IMG/VR virus record: IMGVR_UViG_2541047802_000007
DNA: 64,000 nt
Strand: one strand, 5' to 3'
From: a virus
Taxonomy: Duplodnaviria; Heunggongvirae; Uroviricota; Caudoviricetes
The notes under the pieces are model-generated. The model had not been told where the DNA came from. It ran no database searches and saw nothing but the letters and a program-made list of their open reading frames with translations. How positions within the stretch are numbered: position 1 is the first letter of the stretch; each line of letters starts with the position of its first letter. Of the stretch, positions 22,159 to 23,382 are shown in pieces. Made by a program: the position numbers and the translations under genes.

Positions 22159-23382
22159 TTATTTTAAATATTCATACTTCATCATTTGATGAATAAGGAG
22201 TTCAACTTTTCTAAAAGTGGTATTTTCATAATGTTCAACAAGGGATTCATCAAAGTCTTCAATCCATCCTTTTGCGGGATTATAGGTCGAAAAATTAAAA
22301 TTATTTTTGTATAGATAGGGGGTGGCTTCTAGTGTACTAAACACAGTCCAGGAAACAGGGTTTGTAACTCTAAATATTTTTTTTAAAACAGGACAGTGGG
22401 TATCATTGGTTTCAACTATGTTTTCTATTTTTGGGGGGATAATTACATTAATCCCAATATCGCTATCTTTTTGGTTTAATATCTTTGTTGATCGATACGA
22501 TATCCCTGATATATTTTTGTTTCTGTCACTACTAATCCATTGCATTAATAGGTTTGGTATTATGTATTCTTTATTAAAACTTGCGTTTTCATTATCTTTT
22601 GTATAGTTACATGCAAGGACTAAAGGCCATGCAATCAACTTTGAAATTTTATCATTAATTTGATCCATGAAATTATCATTATTTAGATCGTAATCATCAT
22701 CTGAACCTTGTTCGAATGAATACCAAAGATCTCCCGGTTTTGTACGAAGTGCAGATGTTAAATTGTACCCAAGATCTAAAATTCTTATATTTGAATTTTC
22801 TTTATCGGATATGAAGGAAGATATGTAAAGTTTATCAAAGTCAGGTTTTCCCATTTCTTGCCAACATACAAATATTGATGTTCCAAGATATAAACATGGA
22901 AGACCGGATACAGAAAATCTTTGTGCGCTAACTAAATGTCTATTTTTAAATGGTATATGAAATAATTCTTCTCTTTGTTTTAGGATGCACTCACTTTTCC
23001 TTACGCGAAATAAAGGGGTGTGTGGGTTGCATAATTTAGTTAGAGGAACAGTCATCTTATAAAGATGAGTATGCATTGATGACTTGGTAATTGCCAAATC
23101 GAATTTTTTATAAGCTTCTTTAACATTTCCTATTAAAAATAGCTTAAGAGTTTCTATTATTTTATCAGATAAATATATTATTGATTTTGTGCGAATCTTT
23201 ACTTGTTTAATTATCTCGTTGTCAGGATATTTATTTCTAATGGAGTCAATTAATTCTAAATAGCACTCGACTCTCTTAGAAAAGTCAGAAATTAGTTTTC
23301 CCTCGGCAATGAATGGGGGTTGCAATAGTTCATGTTTTTTTAGTTCTTCCGATATCTGTTCTAATTCGATAATGTTGCGCAT
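22159..23382 (-). CDS. AT-rich cargo protein with RES-domain-like motif
   Basis: 407 aa; same strand as and downstream of int and cI. Confidence 0.45.
   Translation of the reverse strand: MRNIIELEQISEELKKHELLQPPFIAEGKLISDFSKRVECYLELIDSIRNKYPDNEIIKQVKIRTKSIIYLSDKIIETLKLFLIGNVKEAYKKFDLAITKSSMHTHLYKMTVPLTKLCNPHTPLFRVRKSECILKQREELFHIPFKNRHLVSAQRFSVSGLPCLYLGTSIFVCWQEMGKPDFDKLYISSFISDKENSNIRILDLGYNLTSALRTKPGDLWYSFEQGSDDDYDLNNDNFMDQINDKISKLIAWPLVLACNYTKDNENASFNKEYIIPNLLMQWISSDRNKNISGISYRSTKILNQKDSDIGINVIIPPKIENIVETNDTHCPVLKKIFRVTNPVSWTVFSTLEATPYLYKNNFNFSTYNPAKGWIEDFDESLVEHYENTTFRKVELLIHQMMKYEYLK

Follow-up and report, generated by a model that had tools for sequence, protein, structure and literature searches.

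We analysed an open reading frame (ORF) encoding a 407-amino-acid (aa) protein in a Caudoviricetes record of IMG/VR (IMGVR_UViG_2541047802_000007), whose whole stretch of 64,000 nucleotides (nt) is called the window here. This ORF comes last in a Fels-2/186-like P2-family prophage integrated at ssrA, as a cargo gene in the cassette slot between the int stop codon and attP, and comparisons of its sequence indicate that the product is very probably a RES-domain enzyme. From the analysis as a whole we consider it moderately probable that this enzyme defends the lysogen by depleting NAD+ upon infection. The coordinates of the main features are collected in Table 1.

The RES assignment and the evidence for it

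The assignment stands on the Pfam scores of relatives, on a link to the antiphage aRES proteins and on a conserved active site, rather than on the Pfam score of the 407-aa protein (the query) itself. An earlier reading of this DNA by a model, referred to here as the original prediction, had noted a segment resembling RES and had proposed a RES profile search and an alignment of the putative catalytic residues. At the level of the single sequence the resemblance was weak, as Pfam RES (PF08808) scored the query at 12.2 bits (E 0.19; residues 141-205, profile positions 11-75), below the gathering threshold of 23.2 bits. The family passes this threshold by transitivity through the relative P0205, a family member at E 1.6e-57 that scored 26.5 bits over profile positions 22-126. 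Pfam scans of the relatives covered 30 close ones (at E<=1, in the first 25 families) and 36 distant ones (at E<=0.1), and RES was matched by 19 of the former and 22 of the latter, these 22 being sub-threshold; each other Pfam family appeared in at most three of the close and two of the distant relatives.

The family-level and residue evidence carried the resemblance further. BLASTP aligned residues 124-327 of the query with residues 180-364 of the validated aRES protein of E. coli UC5 (E 7e-8, 25% identity), the sequence of which was taken from Table S4 of the aRES preprint. When the family was compared with 24 aRES homologues by hhalign, the probability was 94.3% (E 1e-7), and it was 94.4% when the RES domains were compared by themselves. 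Among relatives 24-40% identical to the query, residues R128, R155, Y165 and E176 were invariant, and S298 and N312 were at least 90% conserved. These six residues aligned with R184, R215, Y225, E236, S334 and N349 of aRES, which are invariant in that family apart from the nearly invariant S334, and the conserved query residues also corresponded to the active-site list of NatT (R23, R82, Y93, S184 and N193; PMC11535050). The alignment of the putative catalytic residues therefore came out as predicted, with R155, E176 and S298 conserved and matching aRES positions. Both a RES/ADP-ribosyltransferase (ART) fold and the conserved Arg, Glu and Ser, together with the active-site Tyr and Asn, were found.

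Several results weigh against this assignment, the low Pfam score of the query being one of them. ParT ranked first in a Foldseek search of the PDB, at a non-significant E of 0.27-0.55, and nothing significant was returned from BFVD. Hidden Markov model (HMM) searches of PDB sequences with full-length close, full-length distant and RES-only profiles found no RES toxin, giving designed helical bundles or nothing relevant, and the loop bearing R155 had a predicted local distance difference test (pLDDT) score below 50 in the AlphaFold2 (AF2) model. PADLOC also matched no model to the query, a result that is uninformative because aRES likewise gives no PADLOC match. The Pfam E value of the query, the lowest Foldseek E value and the missing HMM match to PDB RES chains all speak for a RES resemblance that arose by chance on an unrelated fold, which we regard as extremely improbable beside the relatives' scores, the aRES link and the conserved active site. 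NCBIfam gave no usable match to the query, and the 407-aa family had no precomputed Pfam domains; PHROG 7835, a group of unknown function, matched the query at 600 bits.

Position of the gene in the prophage

The setting described in the original prediction was borne out in each of its parts. The ORF is AT-rich (GC 0.306, compared with 0.464 for int and 0.400 for cI) and lies on the minus strand, downstream of cI and int and between the integrase gene and the att core; cI is presumed to be the first gene of the lysogenic transcript. The int stop codon is 4 nt from the ATG of the ORF (the junction reads ...GAT TAA GCAC ATG...), and the stop codon of the ORF is 117 nt from the att core. No Xre-type partner adjoins the gene, nor is there room for one, because int abuts it upstream and att follows it downstream. 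A simple terminator scan of the minus strand found no terminator-like site from cI to the end of the ORF. It is not a chance ORF, as it had 296 homologues at E<=1e-3 in one search and, in a separate search, 2729 representatives at 50% identity.

This region of the window was 100% identical to E. coli S88, and the 407-aa protein was identical to S88 WP_001244285.1, annotated as a hypothetical protein. In S88 the gene is the last one in a 186/Fels-2-like P2-family prophage that is integrated at ssrA and has the order terminase ... A, dam, fil, cII, apl/cox-like, cI, int, 407-aa gene. The isolated phage Cartapus (Peduoviridae) has the order int, RES-like homologue, attP and then the ogr side, and its attP region was 100% identical to the att core of the window. 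Because Cartapus holds a homologue between int and attP, we assign the RES-like gene to the phage genome. Its borders, composition and variable content are those of a cargo gene (moron) in the int-att slot of a P2-family prophage, and the DNA past att varied among strains with the identical protein, consisting of P4-like satellites, other integrases or insertion sequence (IS) elements.

ARAGORN found no tRNA or tmRNA in the window, consistent with the window holding merely a 46-nt fragment of ssrA. Direct repeats shared by the int side and the distal end of the prophage, which would have marked an att pair, were looked for and not found; the second att lies beyond the window, as ogr is split by a Mu-like prophage (55331/55332). 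S88 has a third att-like copy, 90% identical, about 40 kb further on. In E. coli CP025317 the identical 407-aa gene (locus L008, 8001-9224) is kept as a remnant beside smpB/ssrA, almost all of the rest of the prophage, int and cI included, having been lost in an IS-associated event, and it adjoins autotransporter protease and EspG-like genes.

The 407-aa protein is not a classical Xre-RES toxin, as it has no partner gene and is twice the usual size. The toxins of the Xre-RES, MbcTA, NatRT and ParST systems (Pfam RES, PF08808) measure about 150-250 aa and without exception come with an Xre/COG5642 antitoxin, encoded upstream, by which the active site is plugged, whereas the window gene is prophage cargo that encodes extra domains and stands alone. 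Neither an adjacent Xre/COG5642 antitoxin nor a small single-domain toxin was found, and loci of E. coli, Salmonella and Klebsiella showed the partner-less arrangement too.

Domain architecture and comparison with aRES

The protein can be divided into an N-terminal domain, the RES domain with an internal variable insert, and a C-terminal extension. In the AF2 model, N-terminal helices spanned residues 2-109 with pLDDT values of 82-97, and residues 217-236 of the insert were poorly modelled. Sequence variability was concentrated outside the RES core: in the close set the mean identity to the query was 0.67 and 0.59 in the two RES halves, compared with 0.34 in the N-terminal domain, 0.24 in the insert and 0.34 in the C-terminus, and in the distant set it fell to 0.16 in the N-terminal domain and 0.13 in the C-terminus. 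We propose that the N-terminal domain is a sensor or autoinhibitory module.

The aRES proteins are antiphage RES-domain proteins described in January 2026 by Osterman et al. (bioRxiv 10.64898/2026.01.28.702374), who defined them by RES together with HEPN_RES_NTD1 (PF18870) at an HHsearch probability above 80%. They protect E. coli by using up NAD+, which is turned into nicotinamide and ADP-ribose (ADPR)-1''-phosphate, and active-site mutants lose defence, the mutated residues not being named in the supplement (bioRxiv 10.64898/2026.01.28.702374). The window protein resembles aRES in being a stand-alone RES protein of 300-600 aa without an operon partner, in occurring, as that family does, in mobile or defence contexts of Enterobacteria, and in having a homologous RES domain with identical R, Y, E, S and N active-site positions. 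The aRES genome table does not include S88 and holds only about six Salmonella genomes, although the 407-aa family is present in thousands of Salmonella assemblies.

The two families differ in their accessory domains. The aRES proteins are of about 450-500 aa and begin with a Zn-ribbon/HEPN_RES_NTD1 region (PF18870) that contains two CxxC pairs, whereas the window protein has an unrelated helical N-terminus without CxxC pairs or a Zn-ribbon Cys pattern, and its C-terminus is unlike that of aRES. PF18870 did not match the query at E<=10 in Pfam, was not among the Pfam families listed for the 66 relatives (30 close and 36 distant), and was detected at 21.3 bits in UC5, our positive control for hmmscan. 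The aRES homologues also reach good Pfam RES scores (UC5 gave 53 bits), whereas the 407-aa family has no precomputed Pfam domain. We considered a diverged HEPN_RES_NTD1 as the identity of the N-terminal domain, as the full-length hhalign alignment reaches aRES residues 121-147, but rejected it since the N-terminal regions of the family and of aRES, when compared alone, had no detectable similarity (probability 1.6%). Because the accessory domains differ, these comparisons place the window protein as a probable sister architecture to aRES rather than as a member of that group, with the catalytic domain and the stand-alone logic held in common.

The link to aRES and NatT also bears on the chemistry. 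A RES-fold enzyme could instead ADP-ribosylate a specific macromolecule, as ParT does with Prs, and still cause growth arrest or phage exclusion with no bulk loss of NAD+. We consider such an activity unlikely, because, in the alignments with aRES and NatT, the matching residues are the ones given for the active site of the NAD+ phosphorylase, and the closest relatives of known activity are NAD+ phosphorylases ('RES family NAD+ phosphorylase'). NAD+ depletion is the activity that we favour for the window protein.

Relatives of the protein in phages and bacterial genomes

Direct homologues were found as different alleles in Escherichia phage Cartapus (gp33, 'putative RES protein, NAD+ binding domain'; 42% identity) and as the first ORF of Salmonella phages RE2010 (42% identity) and SopEPhi (38.5% identity), and in this group of P2-family phages the homologue occupies the int-attP slot as it does in the window. 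YopC of Bacillus phage SPbeta (NC_001884, 71903-72781) was 29% identical over residues 41-355. Because YopC is a homologue, the family spans both Gram-negative P2-like and Gram-positive SPbeta-like temperate phages. Annotators have flagged the RES nature in Cartapus gp33, in the RefSeq entry of SPbeta YopC and in some UniRef names, the RES label in the two phage records being the annotator's prediction, and most records of the family are annotated as hypothetical. The literature that we searched held no functional study of the 407-aa family, and its homologues in PHROG 7835, Cartapus, RE2010, SopEPhi and SPbeta (YopC) had no reported function.

The distribution of carriers raises the question of a lysogenic-conversion or host-interaction factor, or of an accessory protein of the phage life cycle, that would have a degenerate and enzymatically inactive RES fold. 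Carriers include extraintestinal pathogenic E. coli (ExPEC), the neonatal-meningitis strain S88 and many Salmonella genomes, one homologue resides in SopEPhi, a virulence-converting phage, and the prevailing annotation as hypothetical would also fit. We nevertheless judge such a role very unlikely, as the catalytic residues are kept across relatives only 24-40% identical and the family extends far beyond pathogens, to Bacillus phage SPbeta and metagenomes. No export feature was evident in the sequence or in its helical N-terminus, for which no dedicated signal-peptide or transmembrane prediction was run.

Among the distant relatives, one on a plasmid- or integrative and conjugative element (ICE)-like contig adjoins a large reverse transcriptase and a type I restriction-modification (RM) system. 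Another, P0148 (611 aa; locus L023, 3522-5357), has the N-terminal/RES-like body (residues 28-325) fused to a C-terminal restriction endonuclease domain of the LlaMI/MvaI type, and it directly follows Gabija-like genes (an OLD-TOPRIM ATPase and a UvrD-like helicase).

Allelic diversity in the int-att slot

We compared the best 80 viral loci of IMG/VR that carry a homologue of the cargo gene. An integrase gene lay directly upstream on the same strand in 73 of the 80, its product being 90-100% identical (median 92%), while the cargo protein was 37-100% identical (median 41%) and formed 35 clusters when grouped at 90% identity and 17 when grouped at 70%. The same pattern was seen between prophages of E. 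coli, Salmonella and Klebsiella, with identities of 91-93% for int, 95-99% for apl and 82-91% for cII, compared with 40-57% for the cargo protein. At the DNA level, identity was high to about 20 nt before the int stop codon, collapsed inside the gene and resumed at the att core; within the gene, pieces of the RES core alone could be aligned (about 70%). One Salmonella allele was present in 6108 blocks of the collection, and the blocks that were sampled were Salmonella genomes.

We read the contrast between a nearly constant integrase and a cargo protein in 17 clusters as an arms-race signature. P2-family cargo slots with rapid gene turnover have been described as the defence hotspots of P2 and P4 (Rousset et al. 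2022, PMC9122126; bioRxiv 10.64898/2026.02.27.708500), in which the P2 int-att interval is a minor one with 3% of P2 defence systems (bioRxiv 10.64898/2026.02.27.708500). The slot in the window is similar in these respects, but in the loci with this family it is filled by many alleles of a single family, deeply diverged from each other, instead of by unrelated systems that replace each other. We tentatively suggest from this that the protein may be a second, independently built architecture of stand-alone RES immunity by NAD+ destruction, in which a catalytic core like that of aRES is joined to a different helical N-terminal domain, insert and tail acting as the phage sensor, and that the int-attP slot may be a polymorphic immune-receptor locus with at least 17 deeply diverged alleles exchanged as a cassette behind an integrase of 90% identity or more. 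If so, each lysogen would gain a different exclusion spectrum.

The alleles also bear on whether the gene could be a toxin for prophage addiction or maintenance, which would contain its antitoxin as a domain in cis and would stabilise the prophage or the tandem ssrA islands with no sensing of phages. RES toxins are classically the toxins of toxin-antitoxin pairs, the protein has a helical N-terminal domain and no separate antitoxin, and the gene has outlived most of its prophage at ssrA in CP025317. Such a module seems to us quite unlikely, since at least 17 deep alleles behind a near-identical integrase would be unusual for addiction, stand-alone aRES relatives work in phage defence, and distant relatives adjoin defence genes.

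Proposed function of the 407-aa protein

In the defence model that we favour, the gene would be transcribed at a low level together with cI and int in the lysogen. Read-through from the cI-int transcript is probable because of the 4-nt spacing and the lack of an intervening terminator, and the RNA-seq table of Cartapus suggests that expression is not high. The enzyme would then be held off by its own accessory regions or by its oligomeric state; we propose such intramolecular or oligomeric silencing since no antitoxin gene accompanies the ORF. Candidates for this autoinhibition are the N-terminal, insert and C-terminal modules, which might double as the sensor of which phages are infecting. 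Infection by another phage would act as the trigger, at which the RES site would destroy NAD+. The reaction would probably be a phosphorolysis like that of MbcT, NatT and aRES, which yields nicotinamide and ADPR-1''-phosphate. By homology to the same three proteins, the outcome would be growth arrest and abortive infection. The interpretation in the original prediction, a candidate NAD-degrading effector of lysogenic conversion or abortive infection, is thus supported by the analysis.

Two sets of neighbours counted for a role in defence. One consists of the PD-T7-1-like and AIPR/AbiU-like genes in other cargo slots of the same prophage, and the other of the relatives that lie beside the reverse transcriptase and type I RM system or that are fused to the LlaMI-type domain near Gabija-like genes. 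Precedents exist for the catalytic domain, for the stand-alone logic and for the setting in a prophage hotspot. What was new, in the literature that we searched, was the arrangement of accessory domains, the number of family representatives (2729 at 50% identity) and the cassette of many alleles of one family behind a conserved integrase.

If the protein is active, a large and so far uncounted group, with those representatives at 50% identity, would join the NAD+-depleting immune systems of bacteria. As it is carried by P2-family prophages that are widespread in E. coli, Salmonella and Klebsiella, an active protein would also be relevant to the prediction of host range in phage therapy. The conserved core with hypervariable flanks in a fixed slot offers a natural allele series for the silencing and triggering of a partner-less RES toxin.

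The mirror copy and the palindrome

The original prediction had listed a mirror copy of the gene, and an identical ORF is present at that place in the left arm of a palindrome. Positions 1-14119 and 16019-30137 of the window form a 100% perfect inverted repeat with arms of 14,119 nt and a centre of 1899 nt (14120-16018), and the mirror copy exists solely because of this repeat, which begins at position 1 of the window and may extend further. Compared with S88, the window follows the forward strand as far as the right-hand end of an invertible tail-fibre segment, then turns back along the reverse strand, starting from the left-hand end of that segment. Inverted crossover sites of the Pin/Gin type were found at these junctions (...AAACGTTGGTTTGGGAGAAG at 14100-14119, and its reverse complement at 16019-16038). 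Each junction fits one orientation of the segment, so that an assembler given a population of mixed orientation could fold back at the segment. Of the invertase genes, the local one is reduced to a 42-aa remnant, and an intact Gin-like invertase gene lies in the Mu-like prophage of the window.

None of 5426 complete E. coli genomes covered the window sequence past position 16038 at 100% identity, and each of the three complete genomes with this allele (E. coli S88, MS7163 and N53) had a single copy of the gene. We conclude from these comparisons that the palindrome is probably a misassembly. A real second gene at the mirror position was rejected as unsupported, the copy being single in three of three complete genomes and the palindromic junction present in none.

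Other cargo of the prophage and neighbouring elements

Two further AT-rich ORFs of the P2-family prophage matched defence systems. A 469-aa ORF in the A/portal (tin/old) cargo slot (31437-32846, plus strand) matched PD-T7-1 at 652 bits in PADLOC and had no Pfam domain. A 566-aa ORF in the late-gene region (41712-43412, minus strand) matched Pfam AIPR at 91 bits and PADLOC AbiU at 85 bits and is the third defence-like cargo gene of this prophage; the 122-aa ORF that overlaps it upstream (43400-43768, minus strand) had no match.

Table 1. Features of the window discussed in the text, with coordinates numbered from its first nucleotide
Feature	Coordinates	Strand	Remarks
Gene of the 407-aa stand-alone protein, probable RES domain	22159..23382	-	whole ORF including stop
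N-terminal domain, codons 1-110	23053..23382	-	all-helical, variable between alleles
Predicted RES (ART-fold) domain, codons 118-345	22348..23031	-	R128, R155, Y165, E176, S298, N312; variable insert at about 200-250
Variable C-terminal extension, codons 346-407	22162..22347	-	no match to aRES C-terminus
Tyrosine integrase (int)	23387..24406	-	directly upstream of the RES-like ORF
186-type CI repressor (cI)	24409..25041	-	Pfam Phage_CI_repr and Phage_CI_C in identical loci; S88 annotation
att core, 46-nt exact copy of the ssrA (tmRNA) 3' end	21997..22042	-	blastn-short with S88 ssrA, 100% over 46 nt
Intrinsic terminator, the native ssrA terminator	21847..21870	-	first terminator-like site downstream of the ORF
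Identical mirror copy of the 407-aa gene	6756..7979	+	left arm of palindrome
PD-(D/E)XK Aga 'Helical-REase'-like protein	20630-21418	-	ssrA-linked island
97-aa ORF	20249-20542	+	ssrA-linked island
PD-T4-3 GIY-YIG	19232-20038	+	ssrA-linked island; 453 bits
GmrSD-type type IV restriction enzyme	16324-18273	-	ssrA-linked island; 1415 bits
mom	55914-56651	-	Mu-like prophage (55332-64000)
Intact Gin-like invertase	56819..57436	-	Mu-like prophage; tail-fibre and baseplate genes also there

Past the att core lies a separate ssrA-linked island (16324-21418; mirror 8720-13814), and beyond this island is an e14/Mu-like prophage. At the ogr side, the right end of the other, Mu-like prophage (TGAAGCGGCGCACGAAAAGCGCGAAAGCG...) starts exactly at 55332, inside ogr of the P2-family prophage. 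The junction at 55331/55332 looks like a Mu-type transposition into ogr, an insertion that is missing from S88 and that would probably cripple the late-gene activation of the P2-family prophage.
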